Positions 3,504-27,074 are shown, counted from the first letter of the stretch. The stretch: 64,000 nucleotides of DNA from an uncultured Chloroflexia bacterium (GCA_963789725.1 CAWBLU010000003.1:317473-381472); one strand, 5' to 3'. Notes: generated from the sequence alone by a model not told the origin. Numbers and translations are program-made.

Positions 3504-4376
3504 CTACAGAATCTTCGAGAGGAACGCTTTCGTGCGCTCTTGAGTGGGGGCACTGAAGATCTGGTCGGGCACGCCCTCTTCCACGACGACCCCCTCGTCC
3601 ATCATGACGACGCGGTTGGCCACTTCGCGGGCGAAGCCCATCTCGTGGCTGACCACAATCATGGTCATGCCCTCGCGGGCAAGCTCCTTCATGACTTCGA
3701 GGACTTCGCCGATCATCTCCGGGTCCAGAGCTGAAGTCGGTTCGTCGAAGAGCATCAGGGCCGGCTTCATCGCCAGGGCCCGGGCGATGGCGATGCGCTG
3801 CTGCTGCCCGCCCGACAGCTGGTTCGGGTAGACCTTCTCCTTTGCGGCCAGGCCCACACGCTCTAGAAGGGCTCGGCCGATCGCGATCGCCTCGTCCTCC
3901 GGCGTGCCCCGGACGTGTATCGGCGCCTCGATGATGTTCTCGAGGGCGGTCATGTGCGGGAACAGGTTGAAGCGCTGGAAGACCATCCCGATCTCCTGGC
4001 GCTGGGCCGCGATGTTCTTCTCCTTATCCTCGATCAGCCTCATGGCGCCGGGAGGGCCGCCGCGCTGCCCGATGAGGGGCAGCTTCCGCTGGCCGGCCGG
4101 AGTCTCGCGATAGCCGATGAGGCGGCCGTTCACGAATATGCGACCACTCTGGATCTTCTCGAGGTGATTGATACACCGGATAAACGTCGTCTTGCCGGAA
4201 CCGGAGGGTCCGACCACGACGACCGTCTCCTGCAGCTTCACCTGGATCGAAACGTCCTTGAGGACGTGCAGCCGGCCGAACCATTTGTTGACCTCGCGGG
4301 CGTCGACAACCACGTCCGTCGCCGGGCGCGGAACGCCACCTATTGCCCCGAGGAGATCGCCCTTGATCATGGTCAT
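3504..4376 (-). CDS. polar amino-acid ABC transporter ATP-binding protein
   Basis: Walker [10 protein letters not shown], signature LSGGQQQR, Walker [17 protein letters not shown] overlap with the upstream permease stop. Confidence 0.95.
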
Positions 4377-5266
4377 TGTTCGATCGGCGCCCTTAGCGAC
4401 ATCAATCGAGCGGCAAGTCCGGGGTTATTGGGACCTCCGCCGGAGGAGTTGGTGTCTGTGCCGCGCGAGAAACGGCGTTCGATGCGGCTCTGGACGATGC
4501 CCCAGAGGGTCGTCAGGAGCAGATACCACACGGCGCAGGCGGCGAACAACTCGAACGTGGCGTACGAGTGGCCGGCGGATACCGAGAAAGTGTTGTAGAG
4601 CTCAAAGATGCTCAGCGCGCTCAACAGCGAAGTGGTCTTGAGCATGTTGTTGAACTCATTGCCGAGCGGCGGAATGATCACTCGGGCCGCCTGAGGAAGC
4701 ACGATTCGGCTCATGGTCAGGCGGTAAGTCATGCCGAGTGACTTGGCCGCTTCGGTCTGTCCCGGATCGACGGCGAGGATGCCGGCGCGCACGATCTCCG
4801 CCATGTAGGCGCCTTCGTTGACTCCGAGAATGACGATCCCCGCGAGGACCTCCGGCAGGATATCGACGGGACCGGCGACGAAGCTCGGCCACTTGAACAG
4901 TCCCGCGGTTGCCAGGCCATAGAAGAAGAAAGACAGCTGAACGAGCAGCGGCGTTCCGCGGAAGACCCAGATGTAGAAGTTGGCGACCAGCCGGAACGGC
5001 AGGAACTTGGCCATCCTGCCCATGGCGGCAAACACCCCGAGCGTCACGCCGATCAGCTGGCTGATCACTGAGATGCCTATCGTGAGGCCGAGGCCGTTGA
5101 TGATCGCGCTGTTCGGGGTCAGGATCGAATCCCAGAAGAACTCCGGCCTGATGTTGTAGGCGGCCTTTCCGGATGAGCAGCCTGAGACCACCAGTGCGAC
5201 GAATACGAGGCACCCGACGAGCAGAGCTCGCCGGGTGCCGAAGAGTTTGACGAAGGACGCGGTCAT
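4373..5266 (-). CDS. amino-acid ABC transporter permease (His/Glu/Gln/Arg family)
   Basis: Multi-TM protein with the EAA-like loop [23 protein letters not shown]. Start moved to the internal ATG at 5266 (GGGAAAG upstream) to avoid overlapping the SBP gene. Confidence 0.85.
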
Positions 5267-5294
5267 CGCGTCGCTTTCCCGTCCGCCCGTATGG

Positions 5295-6263
5295 CTACGA
5301 GCCGGAAGTGCTGGAGACGGCACCGGACTGGACGCCCCACTTGGTGAGGATCGTCATGTAAGTGCCGTCGTCGATCATCTGCTGCAGCGCGGCCTTGATC
5401 GCGTCGCGAAGTTCGGGGTGGTTCTTGGTAACGCTGATGCCCTCGTCGCCGCGCTCGACGGTAAGACTGGGGAGCATCTCGAAGGCTCCGTTGCCGTTGA
5501 CGACTTCATAGCCCGCGACCGGCTCATCGGTGAAGTGGGCAACCACTGTTCCGGCCTGGAGCGCAAGAAGCGCGTCCGTGTCCTGGGAGAAGACCTTGAG
5601 GGTGATGTCCGGCTTGCCGGCCGCCTTGCACTGGGAGTTGAGGCTGTTGGTGGCGTCATAGTCGCCGGTGCCGGAGATATGGTCCGCCTCGACGGTGCCC
5701 TTCTCGGCCGCAACGGCCTTACCGCACAGGTCGGTAACAGCGGCAATGTTGCTCGGATTGCCCTTGAGAACCACGAACGACTGACCTGCGGCGAAGTAGG
5801 GAATCATGTCAACGGCCTGCTTGCGCGCATCGGTAATCGTCTGAGCCGAGACGATGACGTCGCATGAGCCTCCGGTCAGAGCCGGGATGATCGTGTCGAA
5901 GACCGTGGACTTCACGGACAGTTCGAGGCCGAGGCGCTTGGCGATTTCGGCTGCCAGGTCGATGTCGGACCCGACGGCCTTGTTGTCCGCGTCGAGGCTC
6001 TCCTGAGGCGGGTACGCGGTGTCGGAGCACGCGGTCAGCGTGCCGGCCTTGATGAGCTGGTCCGCGGGAACCGTCGGGAGCGCGGCGACAGTGGGGGCGG
6101 CCGACTCGACCATGGCGTCGGTCGGGGCCGCCGTCGGGGTTGCTGGAGCCGCCGTAACCGGTGCGGCCGTGGGAGTGGCTTCAGTCGACGAGCAGGCACC
6201 GGCCGCGATGGCCACTGCAGCGAGGATTCCGGCGATGCGGAATCGATACGAGTTCACGGGCAT
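5295..6263 (-). CDS. amino-acid ABC transporter substrate-binding lipoprotein (SBP family 3)
   Basis: Start at the ATG at 6263, preceded by AGGAGG (6265-6270, minus strand). Lipoprotein signal ILAAVAIAAGACSS. Mature domain is typical of polar amino-acid binding proteins. Confidence 0.9.
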   Translation of the reverse strand: MPVNSYRFRIAGILAAVAIAAGACSSTEATPTAAPVTAAPATPTAAPTDAMVESAAPTVAALPTVPADQLIKAGTLTACSDTAYPPQESLDADNKAVGSDIDLAAEIAKRLGLELSVKSTVFDTIIPALTGGSCDVIVSAQTITDARKQAVDMIPYFAAGQSFVVLKGNPSNIAAVTDLCGKAVAAEKGTVEADHISGTGDYDATNSLNSQCKAAGKPDITLKVFSQDTDALLALQAGTVVAHFTDEPVAGYEVVNGNGAFEMLPSLTVERGDEGISVTKNHPELRDAIKAALQQMIDDGTYMTILTKWGVQSGAVSSTSGS

Positions 6264-6510
6264 TCCTCCTGTCCTCCGGGGCCTCGTACGCCGCATTCCA
6301 TCCCCGTCGACGCGCACGCGGGCCTTGAACGGGCAGCGTAGCCTCAGACGCGAGAGCGCGCAAGGCGATTGGCGCATCGCAGGTTGCGGCAACGTTACGG
6401 TGCGCACAATTCACGGTCCCGACAGGGTCGTGATCGGGCAGGCCACAGGCGGAGTCCCTGCAACCGAGTCGTTCCCAGCGTCGCGTCGTGAAGCCGTTAT
6501 GCTCTGGTAG

Positions 6511-17457: not shown

Positions 17458-17727
17458 AGGAACGATCTCCGAAGCGCAACCTTCTGGCGGACGGAACCGG
17501 GAGAGGCTCGGAGTCTAGCACCGCGCACGAGGCGCGACGAGGGGCCGACGGCACGATCGGTGAGGTTTTCCGCCAGCCGAGCCAGCTGCCCGACTGGCCG
17601 ACGGGACTGCCGGCGGGTGATCCAGGCCCGAGCCGTGGGACCGGCGATCCGGCGGAGACCGGCGCCGGGCTGGCCGGGCCGACCGCCTCCGGTTACGCTA
17701 CGTGCGGCGTTTGGAGCCACCTTCGGT

Positions 17728-17767
17728 GTCCCCGTAGCTCAGTGGATAGAGCGGCCGCCTTCTAAGC
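17728..17767 (+). pseudogene. 5' half of tRNA-Arg(TCT) (attL copy)
   Basis: 40 nt identical to positions 1-40 of the intact tRNA at 26985. Identity breaks at 17768, inside the anticodon stem. Confidence 0.9.
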
Positions 17768-17836
17768 CCAAATCTCCATCGGACGTGCTATCCCTCGTGA
17801 GCTTGGGACCGTGGAGCCCCTTGTTAGTTGCTCAGT

Positions 17837-18094
17837 TCACCCGTCCCGGTAGACCCTCCAATGGACCCTGCCACGGTCGGTGCCGATGGACCCCGGCCCG
17901 CCCACCCGAACCTTCGTGTTCAGGTACTCCTTTCGGAGTTCGGTCTCGAACTTGTCGGGAAACGCCGGGTCCGTGAGCGGGAAGGTCCAACTTCTGCCAA
18001 GGGCTCGTTCTACAGCCTCACGGAACGCCTTATCGCCGCCGGGATAGAGCAGCGCGATAACGTCGTTCACCCGCACTTCCTCGGGCTCGTCCAT
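17837..18094 (-). CDS. hypothetical protein (85 aa)
   Basis: Internal ATG at 18094 preceded by GAAAGGCGGGGG. The upstream part of the 143-aa track ORF is Arg/Ser-rich and overlaps the divergent gene. Confidence 0.45.
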   Translation of the reverse strand: MDEPEEVRVNDVIALLYPGGDKAFREAVERALGRSWTFPLTDPAFPDKFETELRKEYLNTKVRVGGPGSIGTDRGRVHWRVYRDG

Positions 18095-18232
18095 GATCCC
18101 CCGCCTTTCGTTGAATGGGACGCCACGCACCATGCTAGACCTTGTGCGCAGCCGCCCGTCCGTCACGCTGCGAGCAGCGTAGAGTCGGAGTGAAGCGTCC
18201 CCCGTATCGCAAATTCGTTGCAGAGGTGAGCC

Positions 18233-18607
18233 GTGATGGCTGGTCCGCCGTTTGAGATCGAGTTTCACCTTGGGGGTGGCGTCGTCGTTACTCTCGCGCT
18301 TCCAGAGGCAGCGCTCGCCAACCTTCGAGAACCGACGCTACGAGTTATGGCAGCTTCCGGCGTTCGAGGGGGATTCAGGAACGCAGTTCTCGGGATGCTC
18401 GACGCCGCAGTGACGAAGAACCTGACGGAGCCCGTGAGAGTCAGAGACGGCCAAACCTACTGGATCATCCCCACGCATGGCATCCAAGCGGTGCGATTTC
18501 GCGATCCCACAATAGCCGCCAAAGATCAGCGGATAGGCTTCCAGTATGACGACGGCCCGGCCTCGGACGAACAGGTCGAGGCTAGGCCCCCGACGCAGCC
18601 GGTCTAG
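18233..18607 (+). CDS. hypothetical protein (124 aa)
   Basis: GAGGTG lies upstream of GTGATG at 18230-18235. Protein-like composition. No family recognised. Confidence 0.5.
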   Translation: MMAGPPFEIEFHLGGGVVVTLALPEAALANLREPTLRVMAASGVRGGFRNAVLGMLDAAVTKNLTEPVRVRDGQTYWIIPTHGIQAVRFRDPTIAAKDQRIGFQYDDGPASDEQVEARPPTQPV

Positions 18608-18680
18608 CTGTCACGACGTAGCCGACCAGCGGAGCGCGAGCCAGAGCCGTCAGCGCTCGACACTGGGGGATGGCGTCCAG

Positions 18681-18899
18681 TCATCGGCCAAAGACCTGCC
18701 CGCACTGACCGACTTGGTAGGCGTCGGCTGATTGAGGGAGGGTGTTCCGGCAGATTGCCTGCAAGTACCCCTGCTCCACGATCGAATTGGAGTTCGACGT
18801 GTCGATGCCTTTCGCGATTCCGGTCAGCTGGAAGGCAACAACTGCCAGCAGCACGACCGTCAGCAGGTGTAGGGCCAGGCTCGCGTACTTCTGCTCCAC
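18681..18899 (-). CDS. small single-pass membrane protein (72 aa)
   Basis: TM segment LALHLLTVVLLAVVAFQL followed by a Cys-containing ectodomain. Visibly lower GC. Confidence 0.5.
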   Translation of the reverse strand: MEQKYASLALHLLTVVLLAVVAFQLTGIAKGIDTSNSNSIVEQGYLQAICRNTLPQSADAYQVGQCGQVFGR

Positions 18900-19036
18900 A
18901 GTTCCACCTCTCTCGTAGGTGGGACGCCCGGCCCCACTGTAGCTAGCCCCGGTCGCTGCCGCTCGACTGGCCGCACGTCTGCGGGATCGTCGGCGGGGTG
19001 GCGTTGCCGGGGCCAGAGGAGCCCAGTGGCGACGGC

Positions 19037-19882
19037 TTACGCCGCTGGGCCGAACCCACAGGTGACCTGGGTTGCTGCTAGATGGGTTGCGAAGGTGGAT
19101 TGGGCTGCCGCGATGGCAGCGACTCCCGCATTAATCTTGGCTACCGCTGCGTCCATCTTCTTCGCCTGTGCATTTGCGGCGGAAATCTGAGAATTGCCCT
19201 TGGCAATCCATGAATTCGCATCGGCCCACTGAAAATTGAAGGCCGCCTTGTACGCGTCGTAGTAGTCAGTGTTAGCCGCCGAGGTGGCAATTAGTCGGGC
19301 AGTCAGCGCCTTCTGCCAATCCGACCCTTGGGCGGTCGCGTTGTAGTTGGCCACCTGAAGGTCGTAGATGCTGTTCAGTTCGGCTGCGCTGGCGCTCAAC
19401 GCGTTGATGCAGGCTGTCTGTCGCTGTACCTGCCCGGCGAGCGTGGTTACCTGAGCCTGTGCACCCGTAAGCTGGCCCTTCGTCGTGGCGAGTTGGCCCT
19501 GCGTATCGGCCAGTTCGCTTTGGGTTGTAGCGAGCTGAGCCCGGGTTGTAGCGAGCTGACCCTGGGTACTCTGGAGATCGCTCCGATTGTGATTGAGATC
19601 GTTCACGGCAACTGCGGCGAAGGCTCCGGAGGCGATGACCAAGATCGCGAGCAAGCCAGCCAGTACCGGCAAGAATCGTCGACGGGCCACCGGGTGACGT
19701 GTCGACCAGGGCAGGGACGGCGCAAAGATCACGATCCGACTCGGCTCGGCGATTGGCGGCAGAGTCAACGCATTGGACCCGGCCCAATCGCTTACCGCCG
19801 GCGTCGTCTCCAACGGGGGCCGCGCCTCTGTCGCTGCTTCTGATATGGGTTCATACCGTGTGTCAAGAGGCCGCTGGTCCAT
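19037..19882 (-). CDS. membrane-anchored coiled-coil protein with QGQLATT-type repeats
   Basis: ATG at 19882 preceded by GAAGGAG. TM segment FLPVLAGLLAILVIASGAFAAVAV, then STQGQLATTRAQLATTQSELADTQGQLATTKGQLTGAQAQVTTLAGQ. Confidence 0.65.
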   Translation of the reverse strand: MDQRPLDTRYEPISEAATEARPPLETTPAVSDWAGSNALTLPPIAEPSRIVIFAPSLPWSTRHPVARRRFLPVLAGLLAILVIASGAFAAVAVNDLNHNRSDLQSTQGQLATTRAQLATTQSELADTQGQLATTKGQLTGAQAQVTTLAGQVQRQTACINALSASAAELNSIYDLQVANYNATAQGSDWQKALTARLIATSAANTDYYDAYKAAFNFQWADANSWIAKGNSQISAANAQAKKMDAAVAKINAGVAAIAAAQSTFATHLAATQVTCGFGPAA

Positions 19883-19966
19883 CTCCCGCACTCCTTCGCG
19901 TGTCTCTATGCGAGCGGCCGCCGACCCGACCAAGAGCGCCAGCCAACAATCCGTTGCACTCGCACT

Positions 19967-19996
19967 GAGTCTCGCGTGACCGAGTCTCGCGTGACC
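19967..19996. promoter_or_regulatory. tandem 15-bp direct repeat GAGTCTCGCGTGACC x2 upstream of the coiled-coil gene
   Basis: Exact head-to-tail duplication at 19967-19981 and 19982-19996, between the capsid-operon terminator and the next minus-strand gene. Confidence 0.4.
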
Positions 19997-20063
19997 GAAC
20001 GGGGATTCTCAGTACCCAACGGTCCTAGTCAGCAGCGCTGCTCACCTGCACCTGCGGCTAGGA

Positions 20064-20101
20064 CAAAAAAAGCCCCGGGAGAATGGCTAACTCCCGGGGC
20101 T
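20064..20101 (-). terminator. rho-independent terminator ending the capsid operon
   Basis: Minus strand: AGCCCCGGGAG-ttagccatt-CTCCCGGGGCT (11-bp perfect stem) followed by T7. It lies 40 nt after the capsid stop. Confidence 0.85.
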
Positions 20102-20141
20102 CTTGGTGGGGCGCGGGAAGCCGCTCGCCGCGCCTTGTGAT

Positions 20142-21107
20142 TTACGCCTGTCCAGAGGTCAGGACGCTAGCTTGAGTCTCGACAATCACGCCTTTGTAGC
20201 CTGCGGCCGAGAGCACGCTTGCCCCGATCCATGCCTTTACGCCCACGTCAAGAATTTGCTTGAGCGGGTCACCGTGGCCACCCGGAGGCGTCACGATTAC
20301 CTCGACCGTGGAAACGTCTCCCATGCCGAGGAAGCCGGGACCGTAGACATAGCTGCGAATGACATCCTTGCCGGATGTAGCCGTGGCATACGAGCCGACG
20401 ACCGTACTCGAAAGGATGCGGGCGCCCGCAAAGGTTCCCACCTCGCCGGCCAGTAGAGGCTCATTGTCCACGTACTTCGTGGAGTCGAGGAAACCGCCAA
20501 CGGCGGAATCGGTCGAGAGGTCGATGATCGCCCTGGGCGACATGATCGCCCGGTAGTAACCATCGGTGAACGGGGCCACGTTAGTCATCCTGAGGCGGCC
20601 GACTGCCTGCTTGAGAAGGAGGCCGGTCATCTTGGAGTCAACGGTGGAGCGCGAGACTGCGGCGGAGGTACCGCCGTAGATGATGTTGGTTGATGCCGTC
20701 ATGGCGTTCATGGCGATCAATGCAGTTGTGTCGATGCACTCAGCCGCCCAACGGGCGGCCTTCTCGGCAGCCACGGAAGCGAGCTGGTGCGGCGATTCAA
20801 ACTGCGCCAGGTCGGTGATCTGAATGAGCTTGCCGCGCTGAGTGGCGGAGAAGCTATCGATACTGATGGTCAGGCCGACGCCAGCGGGGGCGACGCCTTC
20901 CACGAGGGCCGTGGACGTGTCGGCTACATAAGCGATGTCACCGTACGCGGCCTTCACGAAGGTATTGGTTCCCGGCTCATGGCGAAAGTCGTCAAAGCTG
21001 CCAGGAGTGGCAAAGACGAGAGCGCTTCTCAGCGCCTCTTCGAGACGCTTCTCGACCATGTCCTGGACGAGGTCGGCGAAGTTGCTGGTAGCAGTGGTGA
21101 GGGCCAT
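20142..21107 (-). CDS. HK97-fold major capsid protein (resembles the N4-gp56 MCP family)
   Basis: 321 aa. Overall pattern (...SIDSFSATQRGKLIQITDLAQFES..., ...APFTDGYYRAIMSPRAIIDL..., ...GEVGTFAGARILSS..., ...PPGGHGDPLKQILDVGVKAW...) matches my recollection of this MCP family. RBS AAGGA lies 8 nt upstream. Confidence 0.75.
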   Translation of the reverse strand: MALTTATSNFADLVQDMVEKRLEEALRSALVFATPGSFDDFRHEPGTNTFVKAAYGDIAYVADTSTALVEGVAPAGVGLTISIDSFSATQRGKLIQITDLAQFESPHQLASVAAEKAARWAAECIDTTALIAMNAMTASTNIIYGGTSAAVSRSTVDSKMTGLLLKQAVGRLRMTNVAPFTDGYYRAIMSPRAIIDLSTDSAVGGFLDSTKYVDNEPLLAGEVGTFAGARILSSTVVGSYATATSGKDVIRSYVYGPGFLGMGDVSTVEVIVTPPGGHGDPLKQILDVGVKAWIGASVLSAAGYKGVIVETQASVLTSGQA

Positions 21108-21149
21108 CGGATCATCCTTTCGGACGTATGCGTTCGATAGCCCACGAGG

Positions 21150-21455
21150 TCACCGCCGGCGCGGAGTGTCCATGCCGAATTCCTCCCAACTGGCGTTTCG
21201 CAACGCTTCCTCAGGATCGGGCGGGCGATATGACTGCCGGGGTGCACGGTTGGGGTCGATGCGCGGTTCGGGGCGGGACTCTAGAGCGGCTTGAGCAGCG
21301 GCGAGGTCGGCTTCAGCAGCCGCGGCTCGTCTCAGCGCTTCGTCGCGCTCGTTCGTTCGCTTCCCAAGGCTGGCCATCAACTTGTTTACGCGGCCTGCGA
21401 TGTCCGCACCATCTTGCGAGTCGCCTTCCGGCTCCTGCGAATACTGGTCCGACAT
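21150..21455 (-). CDS. acidic coiled-coil protein, possible scaffolding protein
   Basis: 101 aa, directly upstream of the MCP gene with a 42-nt gap. Acidic N-terminus and an alanine-rich helix (RRAAAAEADLAAAQAALE). Function is inferred from position only. Confidence 0.45.
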   Translation of the reverse strand: MSDQYSQEPEGDSQDGADIAGRVNKLMASLGKRTNERDEALRRAAAAEADLAAAQAALESRPEPRIDPNRAPRQSYRPPDPEEALRNASWEEFGMDTPRRR

Positions 21456-22694
21456 TGTGTCCGTATACCTCTCGTGGTGGGCCGTTGTTTAGTAAACGGC
21501 TCGGGGCTAACATACACCGTGAATGCAAGAGCGCGCCCCACGGCCTGACAGCCTCTACCGCACACCGTTGATAAGTGTGCAAGAGCCCGACGCGGACGAG
21601 TGTCTATGTGTGGCGTGCCGCGACTTGAGGGCCGCGCTGGACCGTCATACGGAAGCCATCAGGAAGGGACTCGGACATACCACGAGAGGGGCCGTTCGAT
21701 CCGCTGCCGCTCGGGCTGACGTACGACACGGCCTCCAATGGTTGCCCGTTGTTTCGCGCGAGCCAGAGGAACAGAAGCCCGAGAGGGTGAAAGATCCCGT
21801 TCGTGTGGCGATGGGACTCCGAGGCGTGGCGACCCGGAGACGTAACGCGGCCCTATGGGGCGTCTAGGAGCCACGCAGAGCGACGTTTGCCCGAGAGGTG
21901 GGGAAAATGGGCACCTGTCGGGTTTCTGACACCTGACGAATGGGTACAAATGTACCCAGCAAGCGCCGCCACTGTGACGGCATAGCGGCGTGGTGGCGTG
22001 CCGTTGTAGTGGCGTTGCTGTGCAAGGGGGTTGCTCTGCGGAGGTCTGCTCTTCGCCCCTCGCGCCTTGCCGGCCAACAAATGCTGTGCCCCGCCGTCCC
22101 GGCCTCGTGGAATTCTCGCGGCGCGGCCCCCTCTCTACGTGGGATCGAGCAACTAACAACGGCACGGCGGGCAGCCGAGCCACGCTCGCGCAGCCACGGA
22201 TAGAGTCATACGCCAAGGAGGCAGTCGCTCTATCGGATGAGGCCAGGCAGGGGCTCTAGGGTGTGCAGGTGGCCAGGGTGCAGAGGGGTGGGAGCGGCGA
22301 GAGTAGGACGAACCCTCCATCGCAGCGCAGGCCGCACCGCACACCGAAAGGGCCGCAGTGCCGCGCTTTCCTACCTTCTATGCGCAGCCGGGCCTGCACC
22401 CGGTCCCTCTTGCACACTTGCACACCATCGCTCCTGCTGCCGCAAGCACTCCGGGGTTGCCACACCCTCGCCACACGCCAGCACCCGGACAGGGTTCTCC
22501 AGAACCCCGCCCGGGGCCGCCGCTCCGGTCCTCCACATGCTCGTTTGCATCCGCTCGCGCATCTCGCTCCTCATTGGGTGCGCCCAGCAGAATCTGCAAG
22601 GGAGACGCGTCTCGGGTGGGTGGGTCCAATTGGCCGGCCACAGATGGTTGTCCTCTGCGACGAGGGTAGAGTTCCGTGCGCTCAGGGGGCCAGA

Positions 22695-22881
22695 TGATGC
22701 GTTCAGGTGATGCGTTCGGGCCTTGGAGCCCTCGGGGCGACGTGATGCGCGGCTTGATGCGTTCGCGCTCATGGGGTGATGCGTCGGGTGATGCGTTCAC
22801 GAAGGCGACGTGATGCGCGGCTTGATGCGTACCGCGAACGCATCATCGGGGGCAACCCTATGGTTGCCCCATGATGCGTTC
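22695..22881. promoter_or_regulatory. iteron array / candidate replication origin
   Basis: TGATGCGTTC or close variants at 22695, 22708, 22743, 22755, 22777, 22789, 22811, 22823 and 22872 (direct), and at 22836-22845 (inverted). A 9-bp-stem hairpin sits at 22849-22870. The 27-29-bp block GGCGACGTGATGCGCGGCTTGATGCGT is duplicated (about 22735 and 22803). Confidence 0.65.
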
Positions 22882-22896
22882 GCTGGTCAGCCGGGG

Positions 22897-23874
22897 CTAC
22901 TTGGTAGCCCATGTGTGGGGCCTCTTGGTCGGGTCCATGACGAACCGTTGAGGGTTCCGACTGAGGTCCAGCCGGAGGTATTGCTCGCTCACGATGCGGG
23001 CGGTGTCTTCCTTGATCGCCGCCGCGATCTGCTTGACGTTCAGGTTGGGGGTGACTGCCAGGACGGCGGCCGCCAGGTCGGCGAAGCTCTGGCGCGGCGG
23101 GGTAGAGGAGGTCTCGATCGTGCCGTCGGGAAAGAAGCTGAAGGTGACGAACTGGGGCGGGTACTTGGCCCGGCCGTTGGCCTTGCGGTTGCGGAGTTCG
23201 AGTTCGACGGTGTGCGGACCGAAAGCGATGAGGTCGGGGTCCGAGTCTTCGGCCTGGTCTCCGATCGCCTCTACTGCCCACGTCTCGCGGGCCAGGTTGT
23301 GAACGAAGACGCTGCCGAACGGACGAGCTGGCCACTTCTCGGCCGCGCCGGCGACGTGGGCGATGGTCAGGCTCGGTAGTCCGATCCGGGTTAGGGCGGT
23401 GAAGTACTCCTGCGCGGCCTGCTTGCCGCCCATGGCGTCGCCGCTCGACGTGGCGACGGAGTAGCTATCGACTACGAGGTAGGTGGCATCGAGTCGATAT
23501 CGCTCGACGCGGAGCAGGTCGGCGACCTCATCGAGCGAACCGCGATCGGCCAGCCAGTCGGGCCCAAAGGGGGCCCGGTAGTGGACGTGATCGAGTTCCT
23601 CGTCGCTGAGTCCGAGACCGCGAAGCCGCGAGCCCCATTCCCGCTCGTGGCCCTCGAAGTCCACCAGCAGGACGACGTGGCCCGCTCTGACGAGCCGGTT
23701 GATTAGGTGGCAGGTGAATACGCCTTTGCCCGTGCCGCCGGGACCGAAGATCACGGTTGCGTCTTCGGGAGTCAGGTAAGGCTCGGCGAGTTGATCCGGT
23801 GGAACGCCAAACAGAAGATCGCGCGCCGTACGGGTGCCGATGGAGGGGAGGCGCTTGAGCGGTTCGGCGATCAT
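22897..23874 (-). CDS. P-loop RecA-like replicative helicase/ATPase (RepA / AAA_25-like)
   Basis: Walker A GPGGTGKG, Walker B VVLLVDFEG. ATG at 23874 overlaps the prim-pol stop (ATGA). Confidence 0.8.
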   Translation of the reverse strand: MIAEPLKRLPSIGTRTARDLLFGVPPDQLAEPYLTPEDATVIFGPGGTGKGVFTCHLINRLVRAGHVVLLVDFEGHEREWGSRLRGLGLSDEELDHVHYRAPFGPDWLADRGSLDEVADLLRVERYRLDATYLVVDSYSVATSSGDAMGGKQAAQEYFTALTRIGLPSLTIAHVAGAAEKWPARPFGSVFVHNLARETWAVEAIGDQAEDSDPDLIAFGPHTVELELRNRKANGRAKYPPQFVTFSFFPDGTIETSSTPPRQSFADLAAAVLAVTPNLNVKQIAAAIKEDTARIVSEQYLRLDLSRNPQRFVMDPTKRPHTWATK

Positions 23875-24770
23875 GCTGCCGCCGCCAGTCGAGCGGCCTG
23901 CCAGGCCGTGATACCGCGTCCGTCTTCGTAGGCTGGGCAGGTTGTCGCATGACACCATGCCCGCCGATCGTCGGCGGCAATCTTCATCGACGGATTCCGG
24001 TCCGGGTGGAATGGGCAGCGGATCGACTGGCCCGGCCTGACGGCCAGCCCGAACCGCTCCGCCAGAACTGCGCAGATCCCGCCGTCGTTGTCGCGATCAT
24101 CACGATGGTCATGGCGAATCGATCGCTGCGGCGGTGTACGGGGCACGTGACGTTCGGCCAGGCTGGCGATGGCGGCGGGGTCCGCCAGCTCGAGCGCCAG
24201 GAGCGCCCCGGCGACCTTGGAATGGAGGGGCGCTCCGGTAGGCGGATCGAGCAGCCCAAACCGCTCGTGCGTTGCGGGATGGGCCATCCAGGGCGCGCGG
24301 AGCGAGCCACCGGCATACGCGCTCGTTGCCCGGTCCGTGTTCGGCCGGAGTTCGATGCGCTTATCGGTTGGGTCCAGCCCGGCCGCCTCGATCGCTGCCA
24401 GCAGCGCCCGCCGCCCGACGATCGCGGGCACGGCCTCACTGGCGACGATCCAGATATGCCCGCCCCGGCGCGAGTGCTCCGGGTAGCAGGCCACGCCCGC
24501 GGCGAGCAGGGCCGAGACGATCGCCTTGACGCCTGACCACTCATCAGCGTCAACGTCCACGGCCAGGACGTGCGTCGACTCCTCGTTGAGAAAGAACACG
24601 GAGAGCGGAGGTCCGTCGGCCGCGAGTGCGGCGACGATGATCTCCGTCGTTGGCTCGCCGGAACACGGCAGCCAGTGATCGGCGGCGGTGTCCCATACGG
24701 AATAGCGGGGTCCAGATGAGAAGGTGGTCCAGTAGAGGCTGGCCACGTCTTCCGGTCGATAGGCGGTCAT
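23871..24770 (-). CDS. bifunctional DNA primase/polymerase (prim-pol) with C-terminal CHC2 zinc finger
   Basis: VLAVDVDADE (DxD) and RRGGHIWIV prim-pol motifs. CPFHPDRNPSMKI...WCHATTC zinc finger. Confidence 0.85.
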   Translation of the reverse strand: MTAYRPEDVASLYWTTFSSGPRYSVWDTAADHWLPCSGEPTTEIIVAALAADGPPLSVFFLNEESTHVLAVDVDADEWSGVKAIVSALLAAGVACYPEHSRRGGHIWIVASEAVPAIVGRRALLAAIEAAGLDPTDKRIELRPNTDRATSAYAGGSLRAPWMAHPATHERFGLLDPPTGAPLHSKVAGALLALELADPAAIASLAERHVPRTPPQRSIRHDHRDDRDNDGGICAVLAERFGLAVRPGQSIRCPFHPDRNPSMKIAADDRRAWCHATTCPAYEDGRGITAWQAARLAAAA

Positions 24771-25147
24771 GCGTCACCGTCCATCGCCAGGTCGGCAAGG
24801 CGACCGGCCAGGTTGCGGAACACGGCGGCGGTTGCCGCATCGCCTCGGTCCTCGGCGAGTTGCGCGGCGAACTCACAGCGATCGACCATTGCCGAGAGTT
24901 GCCCATCGTCGGAGTGCCGATCGACAACGCGGCCAACTTCGGGGTTGATGCCCCATTGGATCGCACGGCTGACGGCCTGTGCCGTCCGGAGTCGAGCCTC
25001 GTACGTGTTGATCTCGGCTCGCACTGCGTCGATCTGCACGCGTTGGTCGGCGATGTGAATGAGGCGACCTTTGATCTCGGGATCGTCTCGCAGGTGCTCG
25101 GGTACTTCGGGCAGGGCAGTATGATTACGAGGGGTTGACGCTGACAC
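24767..25147 (-). CDS. hypothetical protein (126 aa)
   Basis: GTG at 25147 preceded by GGGAGG. The stop overlaps the prim-pol start (ATGA). Confidence 0.5.
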   Translation of the reverse strand: MSASTPRNHTALPEVPEHLRDDPEIKGRLIHIADQRVQIDAVRAEINTYEARLRTAQAVSRAIQWGINPEVGRVVDRHSDDGQLSAMVDRCEFAAQLAEDRGDAATAAVFRNLAGRLADLAMDGDA

Positions 25148-25439
25148 GTCGGCCTCCCTCGGACGCCACCGGACTCTGACCTTCGGTGGCGTCTTCTCGT
25201 ATGGTCTTGGAGCGGGACGCTCGCAAAGCAAGCGAAGCCATGTAGCTCTTGCGAGCGTAGGCGGCACGGCGGGCGCGCTCGTCCGGGGCTAGAGTGCCGT
25301 CCGGATCGACTTGCCGCTCGAACCGCTCAAGGAACTTGGCCGTAGCTGCCCGGGTGTTAGTGCCGCCTTGGCTGTGTAAGGCATAGGCAGCCGCGCGGGC
25401 GCGCAACGTCCGTTGCTTTGGAGTGAGGCTGACAACCAT
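25125..25439 (-). CDS. hypothetical basic protein (104 aa)
   Basis: ORF with protein-like composition in the integrase-replication module. No family assigned. Confidence 0.5.
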   Translation of the reverse strand: MVVSLTPKQRTLRARAAAYALHSQGGTNTRAATAKFLERFERQVDPDGTLAPDERARRAAYARKSYMASLALRASRSKTIREDATEGQSPVASEGGRRVSVNPS

Positions 25440-25579
25440 GTGCGACTCCAGCCCGACGCCTCAACGTCTGGCGAGTCACCCGGCTGGGCCTCTACGTGGT
25501 CCCCAGTTGTCGGAGGAACTTCGATCTATGCTCTGATTCTAGCACGCCGATTGTGCGCGGTGCTTATCTACCGCCCATA

Positions 25580-25972
25580 TCAGGTCCACGGCCTGCGCAT
25601 CTTGGATACGTGGACGGCTTGGCCTCGGTCACATATGGGCTCGGGACAGTGGACGTAGAAATCCGTTCGTGTCTTCAGTCCGCCAGCCGATCCCCGAACG
25701 ATGCTCCCGCCGACCTCGACCGAAAGGTTGTGCCTGATGGGGTCAGTGCGCCCCGGCCTCTTGGGCGGTCCATATTGCGGGAGCCCCGTCGCCGCGTGGA
25801 TAGTGCCTCTGGCCACGAGGCGCGACGAAAGGGCGACATACCAGCGCGGGTTTGGGTCGCGTCCGGGTATGTCGCTGTTGCTGGCTTCGGCGAGACGCTT
25901 ACCGCATGAGTAGCAGTTCGCATACGTCCACGAACCGTCGCCGTCGTAGACGGCCTCTCTTGTCTCGGTCAT
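25580..25972 (-). CDS. hypothetical Cys-containing protein (130 aa)
   Basis: CYSCGK ... CPEPIC suggests a zinc ribbon. The ATG overlaps the integrase stop (ATGA at 25969-25972). Confidence 0.5.
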   Translation of the reverse strand: MTETREAVYDGDGSWTYANCYSCGKRLAEASNSDIPGRDPNPRWYVALSSRLVARGTIHAATGLPQYGPPKRPGRTDPIRHNLSVEVGGSIVRGSAGGLKTRTDFYVHCPEPICDRGQAVHVSKMRRPWT

Positions 25973-26874
25973 AGCCGGTCGGCCGGCGAGCGGTAGTTCG
26001 CGCGGGCTCGCTCATCTGCTGCGCTCGCTCCGTAACGGTTCAACATCTGGCGGCTGCGCCAACCTGCCAACCGCATCAAGTCGCCTTCCTGCCCACCGTC
26101 GGCCAACCACGTATGCGCGAAGCCGTGACGGAATTGATGCGCGTGAATTCTCGGGAGACCGGCAGCAGCGGCGCGCTTGGCGATCATCTGCCCGAATGCC
26201 GAGACGGTCAGGGGGCCATCCTGCCCGAGCCACAGTTCCTCACGGTCGGCGTAGCGGTGGCTCTTGCGTAGACGTAGGTACCTGTCGATCGCAATGGCGG
26301 TCTTCGTGCCGAAGCGGACGGCGCGGGTGTGCCCGCCCTTGCCGGTGACGTAGGCGAGGCGGTCCTTCAGTTCGACATCGGCGAGCTTCAGTCCCGCCAG
26401 TTCGCCCCGGCGGATGCCGGTATCGAACAAGACGTAGAGGATCGCGGCATCGCGGCGGTCCACGATCTCCCGCCCGGTCGTGGTCTTGAGGATCTTGAGG
26501 AAGTCGGCATTGGCCACGAGCGGCACCGGCTTATCGGGGACGCGGGGAGCCTTCATCTTCTCCATCGGGCTCCGGTCGATCTCGTCTTCCTCTGCCGCCC
26601 ATCGCCAGAACTGCTGCAAAGCCCTGAATTCAATCGATAGGGTCGCCGGGGCCACCGTCTCGCGCCTCTCGGCAAAGTAGCTCTCGACGTGTTCTCTCCG
26701 GACGGCCCGCGTCCCGGTCGGCATCCCCTTGGCTTCGAGGTGCCCGATCAGGTGATCGAGCGCGGCTAGGTAGATCCGGTTCGTCTTCGGAGAGCGGTCT
26801 GCCGCTAGGTGTAGCGCGAAACTGTCGCGTAGACTGAGGAGCGCATCGGGCGCCCGAGTCGAGGTTTGCACCAT
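25969..26874 (-). CDS. int: tyrosine recombinase / phage-type integrase
   Basis: N-terminal SAM-like core-binding domain. Catalytic residues in GIRRGELAGL (R), HQFRHGFAH (HxxR) and LAGWRSRQMLNRYGA (Y). Confidence 0.95.
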   Translation of the reverse strand: MVQTSTRAPDALLSLRDSFALHLAADRSPKTNRIYLAALDHLIGHLEAKGMPTGTRAVRREHVESYFAERRETVAPATLSIEFRALQQFWRWAAEEDEIDRSPMEKMKAPRVPDKPVPLVANADFLKILKTTTGREIVDRRDAAILYVLFDTGIRRGELAGLKLADVELKDRLAYVTGKGGHTRAVRFGTKTAIAIDRYLRLRKSHRYADREELWLGQDGPLTVSAFGQMIAKRAAAAGLPRIHAHQFRHGFAHTWLADGGQEGDLMRLAGWRSRQMLNRYGASAADERARANYRSPADRL

Positions 26875-26984
26875 GATTCACCACCTACTGTTAGTTGCTC
26901 AGTTGCTCGACGTGCTAACTGTAGAGCGGGCGAATCAGGGGGTCAAGACGAGACTTTCACGCTCAATGTGAGCAACCGCCTAGT

Positions 26985-27057
26985 GTCCCCGTAGCTCAGT
27001 GGATAGAGCGGCCGCCTTCTAAGCGGCGGGTCGTGGGTTCGAATCCCGCCGGGGACG
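26985..27057 (+). tRNA. tRNA-Arg (anticodon TCT); CCA encoded at 27058-27060
   Basis: Hand-folded cloverleaf: acceptor GTCCCCG/CGGGGAC, D-arm GCTC/GAGC, anticodon stem GCCGC/GCGGC with loop CTTCTAA, T-arm GTGGG TTCGAAT CCCGC. Confidence 0.95.
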
Positions 27058-27074
27058 CCAATTCCCGCCGCACG

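Follow-up and report, generated by a model that had tools for sequence, protein, structure and literature searches.

What kind of mobile element would combine an integrase, a replication module, and a single phage coat protein gene, with no portal, terminase, or tail gene at hand? The question is raised by a 9.3-kb island beside tRNA-Arg(TCT) in a 64,000-nt stretch from an uncultured Chloroflexia bacterium (GCA_963789725.1, CAWBLU010000003.1:317473-381472; the whole stretch is called the window here, and positions count from its first nucleotide). A sequence-only reading, made by a model before any database was searched, had described the island as a candidate capsid-encoding phage satellite. 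Our analysis also points to a minimal capsid-encoding phage satellite, with a probability of roughly 55%, on the grounds that the element is bounded and of lower G+C content, retains intact attachment (att) sites and an integrase, has a complete-looking replicon, encodes a secure capsid protein and a member of a scaffold-like family, and has sibling islands elsewhere. The features that define the element and its head module, including one named open reading frame (ORF), are as follows.

17726-17767, no strand: attL, the displaced repeat copy, made of 2 nt upstream plus the 5' 40 nt of tRNA-Arg(TCT)
20065-20104, minus strand: intrinsic terminator, a 14-bp GC-rich stem and U7, ~40 nt past the stop of the capsid gene
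20142-21107, minus strand: major capsid protein of the N4-gp56 family, HK97 fold, 321 aa (TIGR04387, 97.6 bits, cutoff 60; phrog_1357 "major head protein," 5.1e-26)
21150-21455, minus strand: ORF101, 101 aa, a short coiled-coil protein of scaffold-like type whose gene immediately precedes the capsid gene; homologous to a short-scaffold family
21456-22694, no strand: stretch without coding signal, ~1.24 kb, with flat codon-phase GC and no family match
26983-27024, no strand: attR, the second repeat copy, which is the 5' part of the intact tRNA
26985-27060, plus strand: tRNA-Arg(TCT), the intact target (ARAGORN; Rfam RF00005, 69.8 bits)

The identity of the capsid gene is firm. Its product lies above the curated equivalog cutoff of TIGR04387, a family with the HK97 fold, and its Pfam matches were to Phage_capsid_3 and Phage_capsid_4 only. 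All 47 columns that are invariant in a 14-sequence alignment are kept (47/47). A profile of the 14 closest homologs matched solved capsid proteins. An AlphaFold2 model built from 28 sequences (pLDDT 70.5, pTM 0.66; 14 sequences gave pLDDT 44.7) retrieved the capsids of phages N4, B2, and Moo19 as the top Foldseek matches in the PDB (E about 1e-14, TM 0.55-0.61), and an N4-gp56 capsid protein in BFVD (E 1e-20, TM 0.70). The HK97-fold call, on which the earlier proposal hinged, thus held in both profile and structure searches. An encapsulin identity was rejected, as there was no Linocin/encapsulin Pfam match and the N4-gp56 capsid equivalog cutoff was passed.

ORF101 had likewise been singled out from sequence as a coiled-coil, scaffold-like protein, and family homology now stands behind that description. 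The protein is 38% identical to the product of a ~109-aa gene upstream of the best capsid homolog (51% identity), which was found on a 1.5-kb contig (L006) where capsid gene and terminator follow too. A phmmer search of 1.84 billion representatives returned 16 matches, 14 of them 97-112 aa long and 41-66% identical; the other two were a 144-aa protein and a repetitive 6,394-aa protein taken as spurious. All ten of the homologs that were looked up (10/10) lie on contigs of 12.4 kb or less, and a scan of IMG/VR detected no member of the short family. Aligned with the ~190-aa proteins encoded upstream of the capsid gene in related phages, the ORF101-family profile gave an hhalign probability of 91.5% (E 8.8e-7) over the C-terminal half, with a 34-residue internal gap, while a two-sequence profile reached only P 5.6e-4. 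Judged from these alignments, ORF101 is a conserved, about half-length homolog of the phage gene in scaffold position. Because the ~100-aa family is itself diverged (41-66% identity; 14 clusters, 97-112 aa), the short form is a maintained one and no fresh truncation. The ~190-aa phage proteins, which had no annotated relative and no useful match in a PDB sequence search, are taken as scaffolds on the basis of position and coiled-coil character only.

Where could such a two-gene head module have come from? Capsid homologs are rare, with 29 matches among 5.8 billion proteins, and a scan of genome contigs with the capsid profile recovered a single distant locus (L007). At 37-41% identity, homologs lie on phage contigs of 15-44 kb from soil metagenomes (forest and farmland), in which the gene order is large terminase (TerL, 525 aa), portal (684 aa), two large genes, the ~190-aa gene, capsid, glycosyltransferases, an SU10-type adaptor, and tail genes. 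In Bacillus phage Page and allied cultured phages, which are distant relatives, small terminase (TerS), TerL, portal, an unnamed gene, and the capsid gene are followed by a terminator. From these two gene orders, the module of the island corresponds to the last two genes plus the terminator of a podophage head operon; it matches the end of the TerL-portal-...-scaffold-capsid-terminator operon of a podophage lineage with genomes of ~35-45 kb. The terminator, which had been noted as strong from sequence and is present in both L006 and phage Page, is part of this match.

Portal, terminase, maturation protease, tail, lysis, and FtsK/Tra-type transfer genes had all been reported missing, and the absence was sustained in a scan of 22 ORFs of the element against Pfam and PHROGs, in which no portal, terminase, protease, lysis, or FtsK family matched. 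The sole Tra-type match was a TraG P-loop in the element's ATPase, its only P-loop protein (E 0.005; 15.9 bits versus a cutoff of 25.8), and the only "tail" label in the element came from the coiled-coil part of a 298-aa cargo protein, which weakly matched a tape-measure family (phrog_167, 1.4e-5). The ~1.2 kb reported as free of ORFs was confirmed as such by its flat codon-phase GC. Its 8-10 longest ORFs matched nothing in PHROGs or Pfam, Rfam gave no match, and neither did blastn against GenBank phages. With tblastx and blastn against all collected loci, only its iteron part matched, to the sibling locus L088, and tblastx against the head-gene regions of related phages left no trace of TerL, portal, or the large genes. 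Given the flat GC phase and the lack of family, tblastx, blastn, and Rfam matches, the stretch is not a recognizable pseudogene or known RNA. Homologs of portal, terminase, or tail genes that might have been hidden in the unassigned ORFs or in this stretch were thus looked for and not found. The stretch is 2-6 times longer than the equivalent spacer of the siblings, and immediately before ORF101, at 21507-21590, it contains two ~35-nt motifs in tandem that may be a late promoter or operator.

This layout invites a less constructive explanation, namely a defective chimera: an integrative replicon built on a primase-polymerase (prim-pol) that recombined with a phage, or is the deletion remnant of one, and whose head genes play no role in transfer while the island is inherited vertically or occasionally excises. 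The 1.24 kb of non-coding DNA sits exactly where the upstream head genes would be, the capsid terminator could simply be a carry-over of the phage operon, the searches recognized neither a regulator nor TerS nor a pac site, and the element is almost unique in the databases. Against this, all genes are intact, the capsid protein keeps every family-invariant residue, the att repeats are perfect, the short scaffold belongs to a conserved and diverged family instead of representing a recent truncation, and the spacer bears no tblastx trace of the genes supposedly lost from it. No integrase was found in the 14-21 kb examined of the related phage contigs, which makes prophage decay an unlikely origin. 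On balance we regard the chimera as unlikely, a judgment to which the sibling islands described below contribute.

The boundaries of the element are those of an integrated island. The perfect 42-bp direct repeat (17726-17767 = 26983-27024) had been recorded from sequence as bracketing 9.2 kb at tRNA-Arg(TCT); the coordinates proved correct, the enclosed DNA measures 9,257 bp, and ARAGORN and Rfam agree in placing the tRNA. An exact match of 42 bp within 64 kb cannot plausibly be due to chance. The remainder of a tRNA does not follow the attL copy, and an Rfam scan of 17-28 kb (E≤1) recovered nothing besides the intact tRNA. The element has a G+C content of 64.2%, compared with 68-69% in both flanks, and is lowest (61-63%) in the capsid gene and the cargo end.

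Integration at tRNA genes usually involves their 3' end, and the geometry here is the reverse. Since the repeat takes in 2 nt of leader and then 40 nt of the tRNA, from its 5' end through the anticodon loop, it is the upstream side of the tRNA that holds the element, and the region upstream of tRNA-Arg(TCT), together with its 5' half, is now supplied by element DNA. The integrase gene starts (26874) 110 nt from the tRNA 5' end. The sole homolog found for the integrase (50% identity), at locus L103, likewise adjoins a tRNA-Arg(ccg), with its start 29 nt from the tRNA 5' end; a search of 13 kb at that locus turned up no flanking repeat. That both integrase genes adjoin the 5' end of a tRNA-Arg suggests an integrase subfamily aimed at tRNA 5' halves, with the tRNA upstream region replaced by element DNA. 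On the opposite side of tRNA-Arg(CCG) in L103 (3665-7908), a gene for an 811-aa primase/helicase adjoins that for a 500-aa large serine recombinase, the ORF of which overlaps the tRNA on the opposite strand; this region may represent one more mobile element at that tRNA.

Between the integrase and the head module lie the genes and repeats that would allow the island to replicate on its own.

26918-26946, minus strand: promoter-like site TTGACC-17-TACAGT, a candidate early promoter from a consensus scan (a pattern only, with a count not above shuffle expectation)
25969-26874, minus strand: XerC/D-like tyrosine integrase, 301 aa (Pfam Phage_integrase, 3.8e-22; phrog_1, 4.9e-37)
25580-25972, minus strand: 130-aa gene, no family match, its start overlapping the integrase stop (ATGA)
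25125-25439, minus strand: 104-aa gene, sub-threshold match to DUF7285 only (21 bits, cutoff 27)
24767-25267, minus strand: 166-aa ORF as listed, no family match, its stop overlapping the prim-pol start (ATGA)
23871-24770, minus strand: AEP prim-pol with C-terminal CHC2 zinc finger, 299 aa (AEP-TOTE, 35.1 bits, cutoff 27; primase zinc-finger PHROGs)
22897-23874 (ORF to 23958), minus strand: AAA_25 P-loop ATPase (RecA/DnaB superfamily, RepA-like; 4.7e-6, 26.8 bits, just below the cutoff of 27)
22689-22883, no strand: iteron block with palindrome, the presumed origin (repeats, fold signal, similarity to L088)

The tyrosine integrase, the prim-pol with its CHC2 finger, the P-loop helicase, and the iterons had each been named from sequence, and the family scores, invariant motifs, and repeat counts agree. 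The integrase scores below the XerC and XerD equivalog cutoffs. The prim-pol belongs to the AEP superfamily by its DxD and sxH motifs and by a Pfam AEP match above threshold; residues D72/D74, SRRGGH105, and C252-H255-C273-C278 are invariant across 19 homologs, and a profile search retrieved the prim-pol-related PDB chains 7nqd/7nqf (E 7e-4). The ATPase (325-353 aa), presumed to be the replicative helicase, also weakly matches a DnaB-like PHROG and is 75% identical to the product of the gene after prim-pol in L088. Gene order and strand, with all credible genes from 19037 rightward on the minus strand, were as originally laid out; two starts, though, needed correction. The ATPase most likely begins at 23874, in an ATGA overlap with the prim-pol stop, as homologs align from residue 29, and the 166-aa ORF probably begins later (~120 aa) because it would otherwise overlap the 104-aa ORF by 143 nt. 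The three small ORFs (130, 104, and ~120-166 aa) had no significant match in Pfam, PHROGs, PADLOC, or the PDB.

All eight exact copies of ACGCATCA in the 64-kb window (8/8) fall within 22695-22879, where chance would account for 2.4 copies. A 27-nt unit is present in the block as two exact copies and a third of 67% identity, along with a 17-nt inverted repeat (94%). An RNA-fold z-scan gave a strong signal only at this palindrome (z about -5), and the DNA that follows the ATPase gene in L088 is 76% identical to the block in nucleotides. The block is most naturally read as an origin of replication, and prim-pol, ATPase, and iterons together would form a complete-looking replicon.

Does this replicon occur elsewhere, and in what company? 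Only 18 homologs of the prim-pol were found (48-72% identity), and a metagenome scan with the prim-pol profile yielded 7 loci only. Searches of GenBank phages and PLSDB plasmids with the prim-pol and ATPase (tblastn) gave no match, nor did the whole element against PLSDB. At 62-72% identity, the prim-pol replicon recurs in small islands with other integrases and other sites, in neighborhoods that include WhiA/RapZ/CofD and pheST genes; taken by themselves, these neighborhoods and the high GC content would suggest actinobacterial hosts for the island family. At L113 (7861-16750; also L114), an insert of at most 8.9 kb splits pheT from pheS, which normally form one operon. It carries genes for a serine recombinase, two small proteins, a prim-pol (65% identity), an AAA_25 ATPase, five further small proteins, and a capsid protein, the last of which (432 aa, HK97; PF05065; phrog_10, 1.2e-16) is the only recognizable virion gene product. 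L094 (7399-16478) is a 9,031-bp island enclosed by a perfect 49-bp repeat equal to the 3' end of tRNA-Val(TAC). Its genes encode a tyrosine integrase, an HTH_17 protein, prim-pol, and ATPase, followed by iterons (3 x 26-nt repeats at the equivalent position) and a 506-aa large terminase (phrog_9, 3.3e-53); a phrog_226 "minor tail" gene is present and no capsid gene was recognizable, so that L094 is possibly a terminase-only satellite.

Other siblings add further combinations. At L089 (7280-20894), with an att site of the tRNA-Val type, the genes after prim-pol and ATPase encode, in order, a TerS-like protein, a 193-aa protein, an HK97 capsid protein of 402 aa, two small proteins, and a 681-aa tape-measure-like protein; neither an att repeat nor the far boundary was found within 13.5 kb. 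L099 encodes prim-pol, ATPase, and a 422-aa capsid protein. The closest replicons, L088 and L090, have serine recombinases and otherwise only unassigned small genes, and the 282-aa protein of L094 and the 314-aa protein of L090 had no useful match in a PDB sequence search. L090-L093 stand for 17 contigs of ~6.5-9.7 kb from many sequencing runs. In these contigs the serine recombinase gene stands midway along the gene order, a placement suggesting that a further prim-pol element was captured in excised or circular form; no terminal overlap was detected in them. They also encode a VRR_NUC nuclease and an unannotated pair of 102-aa and 314-aa genes that resembles a scaffold/capsid pair in size only.

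Taken together, these loci join the replicon to recombinases of three kinds and to a choice of incomplete morphogenesis modules, and every island with established boundaries measures about 9 kb. Exchange of such modules around one replicon, at a constant size of ~9 kb, is what satellites typically show, unlike random prophage decay. That the siblings share both the size and the clean boundaries, and likewise carry partial head modules, tells against the defective chimera.

Which described system does the island resemble? Phage-inducible chromosomal islands of the capsid-forming type (cf-PICIs; Alqurainy et al. 2023) have, in the SatelliteFinder model, at least nine of 11 core components and a median size of 14 kb; the core comprises integrase, regulator, primase-replicase, capsid, protease/decoration, portal, head-tail adaptor, connector, TerS, TerL, and HNH genes (PMC10085698). 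Like them, the element is an integrated island with an integrase, its own primase/replicase, and its own HK97 coat protein, and lacks tail and lysis genes. In contrast, it has only three of the 11 components (integrase, an analogous primase-replicase, and capsid), reduces the head genes to capsid plus scaffold-like gene within 9.3 kb, uses an unrelated replicon (AEP prim-pol plus AAA_25), and had no AlpA-type regulator or portal that we could find, whereas cf-PICIs bring their own portal. The gene set is therefore smaller than that of cf-PICIs, as the sequence-only reading maintained, but the novelty it implied needs tempering, since an architecture of ~9 kb with major capsid protein and scaffold only had already been described from metagenomes (bioRxiv 10.1101/2025.06.18.659913). 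The satellite proposal as a whole fared similarly: the bounded tRNA-integrated element, its own replicon, the capsid and scaffold-like genes, and the exclusion of the alternatives all stood, while the arrangement is less unprecedented than supposed. Classical PICIs combine an integrase, a master repressor or AlpA, a pri-rep gene, a capsid-morphogenesis gene, and TerS or Rpp, and have neither portal nor tail genes. Measured against this set, the element has an integrase, a replicon, and a capsid-related module and lacks portal and tail genes, and no regulator or TerS was recognized among the three small genes. An autonomous tailed prophage does not fit, as there was no large terminase, portal, tail, or lysis match and the largest unassigned ORF has 298 aa.

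Small satellites of Actinomycetota (11-17 kb) likewise supply capsid and scaffold themselves. Among them, the EPIPs of Mycolicibacterium aichiense (~11 kb), described in a preprint, were isolated as particles with small capsids on helper tails, and encode TerS, head-tail adaptor, stopper, serine integrase, HTH (helix-turn-helix) protein, scaffold, capsid, and tape-measure, with no large terminase or portal listed (PMC12822802). The island shares with them its own capsid and scaffold and the lack of large terminase and portal. It differs in having no TerS, adaptor, stopper, or tape-measure gene, and in its tyrosine integrase and its own replicon, and it is not an EPIP. The TerS/capsid/tape-measure set of L089, compared by gene list only, is EPIP-like (PMC12822802) and a better fit than the element in the window. 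The Streptomyces satellites MulchRoom, MiniFlayer, and Ando have terminase and portal genes and no replication genes (PMC10690885, PMC13587820), whereas the island has neither terminase nor portal and brings its own replicon.

The closest described architecture is found in the "encapsulin-enriched mini viral genomes" from the human gut (Aguilar et al. 2025, bioRxiv 10.1101/2025.06.18.659913), contigs of 8.9 ± 0.6 kb (5-11.6 kb) that have direct terminal repeats and in which capsid and scaffold are the only structural genes, accompanied by an integrase and a Rep or helicase, with no terminase, portal, or tail. The 9,257-bp element has each of these architectural traits. The gut clade, however, carries encapsulin-type capsid Pfam domains, whereas the island has an N4-gp56 podophage capsid with soil-phage relatives, a prim-pol replicon, and a high-GC host, and is seen integrated at a tRNA. 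The differences in capsid type, replicon, and host indicate an independent origin of the same architecture. What is new here is the combination, in one minimal island, of capsid and scaffold-like genes with a prim-pol replicon and integration at a tRNA 5' half; a similar architecture was known from gut metagenomes.

The shared inventory raises the idea that no helper is needed. Such an element would form a portal-less, tail-less "mini virus," or a procapsid-like or gene-transfer compartment, and take up DNA of its own, or other cargo, with no terminase involved; loading of the ~9-kb genome would perhaps be coupled to the prim-pol/helicase replisome, in a case of independent origin from the gut mini genomes. 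The inventory equals that of the mini genomes, and L113 repeats it with a different capsid family. However, the capsid is of the ordinary podophage type with no encapsulin signature, no mechanism of packaging or exit can be named, and siblings with TerL or TerS point to terminase-driven packaging within the family. To our knowledge, packaging of double-stranded DNA into an HK97-fold shell without portal and terminase has never been shown. We consider helper independence very unlikely.

Actinomycete integrative and conjugative elements (AICEs) such as pSAM2 and SLP1 resemble the island in size range, tRNA integration, and the pairing of an integrase with an autonomous replication module, and some AICEs have prim-pol-type Rep proteins. 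This identity was rejected, since no FtsK/SpoIIIE-type TraB, Spd, or Nudix/Pif genes were found and phage head genes are present instead. Both exclusions made from sequence, of an autonomous prophage and of an actinomycete ICE, are upheld by the missing virion and TraB/FtsK-type genes.

How would a satellite of this kind spread? Upon infection by, or induction of, a helper podophage of the lineage identified above, the island would excise, replicate from its iterons with its own prim-pol and helicase, and express its head module. The island's coat protein and the half-length scaffold would assemble on the helper portal into small T=3 to T=4 shells that hold about 9 kb and exclude the ~40-kb helper genome. 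Helper terminase, connector/tail proteins, and lysis functions would then finish and release the particles, with spread of the island and interference with the helper as the outcome. P4 packs 11.6 kb in a T=4 shell, and the largest encapsulin shells have projected capacities of about 5 and 10 kb; by analogy, a 9.3-kb genome would suit a T=3 to T=4 shell. P4, SaPIs, and PLE redirect capsid size through Sid, CpmAB, and TcaP, each combining the coat protein of the helper with an alternative scaffold. The proposed likeness to these systems is a small shell, set by a satellite scaffold-type protein, that admits only the satellite genome; the difference is that the island encodes the coat protein itself, and that its scaffold is a shortened homolog of the phage internal scaffold.

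The same two proteins could also act without any packaging. As anti-phage cargo of an integrative, plasmid-like island, the coat protein and short scaffold would be dominant-negative "poison" subunits against podophage capsid assembly. The head module is a separate unit with its own terminator, its capsid protein is close enough to phage coat proteins for plausible co-assembly, and shells built on a half-length scaffold would be expected to come out at the wrong size; known satellites do interfere with their helpers through capsid remodeling. Nevertheless, PADLOC found no defense system among the cargo and small ORFs, and the TerL or TerS/capsid/tape-measure sets of the siblings point to packaging and not only to interference. 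We know of no precedent for interference by a full, conserved coat protein without packaging. As a sole function, interference seems quite unlikely to us; it is compatible with the satellite model, and the two are not mutually exclusive.

Several observations weigh against the satellite interpretation itself. The nearest phage capsid proteins are only 37-41% identical, and as the best capsid homolog (51%) lies on a 1.5-kb contig, the exact architecture has been seen once only. No TerS, packaging or pac site, or recognizable helper-sensing regulator (Stl, AlpA, or HTH) was found among the ORFs of the element, and no excised form was detected. When the remainder of the window was surveyed coarsely by ORFs and GC, no prophage was recognized and no helper identified. 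Decayed sequence could account for the 1.24-kb non-coding stretch. Finally, we know of no system in which a satellite coat protein has been demonstrated to assemble on a foreign portal.

Beyond the capsid terminator, the cargo end of the element (17768-19933) contains the following ORFs.

19037-19933, minus strand: membrane-anchored coiled-coil protein, 298-aa ORF (database copy 281 aa), weak coiled-coil-type matches only
18681-18899, minus strand: 72-aa hydrophobic ORF, no Pfam, PHROGs, or PADLOC match
18233-18607, plus strand: 124-aa ORF, no Pfam, PHROGs, or PADLOC match
within 17837-18899, minus strand: 143-aa ORF, probably shorter, no Pfam, PHROGs, or PADLOC match

This content bears out the membrane and unassigned cargo that had been predicted after the terminator. 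Homologs of the 298-aa protein (70% and 55% identity) occur in contexts unrelated to the element. The cargo end also holds a ~51-nt motif, GGCCCCCGACGCAGCCGGTCTAGCTGTCACGACGTAGCCGACCAGCGGAGCG, present as a single copy in the window (18584-18636). Four copies at 90-96% identity lie in the intergenic spacers of a 15.8-kb metagenome contig, L109 (750-788, 4600-4650, 6761-6815, and 9096-9146), and the motif is also found in two related contigs, L110 and L112; it may be a dispersed REP-like (repetitive extragenic palindromic) repeat or a small RNA. Elsewhere in the window, a second GC dip at 4001-6400 (62.6%, window mean 67.6%) covers three minus-strand ORFs (3504-6407).

Known satellites either take the coat protein of the helper, as do P4, SaPIs, and PLE, or bring a whole head-and-packaging kit, as do cf-PICIs and the Streptomyces satellites. 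If the satellite interpretation is true, the island would follow an intermediate, minimal strategy and bring only a coat protein and a half-length scaffold. This opens the questions of whether a foreign coat protein can nucleate on a helper portal and whether scaffold length sets shell size. The island would also belong to a family of ~9-kb prim-pol islands in high-GC hosts that swaps single morphogenesis genes, be it a capsid gene, TerL, or a TerS/capsid/tape-measure set, and that tools of the SatelliteFinder type would not classify. By gene content these islands tie to the EPIPs, and by architecture to the capsid-and-scaffold-only mini genomes of the gut.

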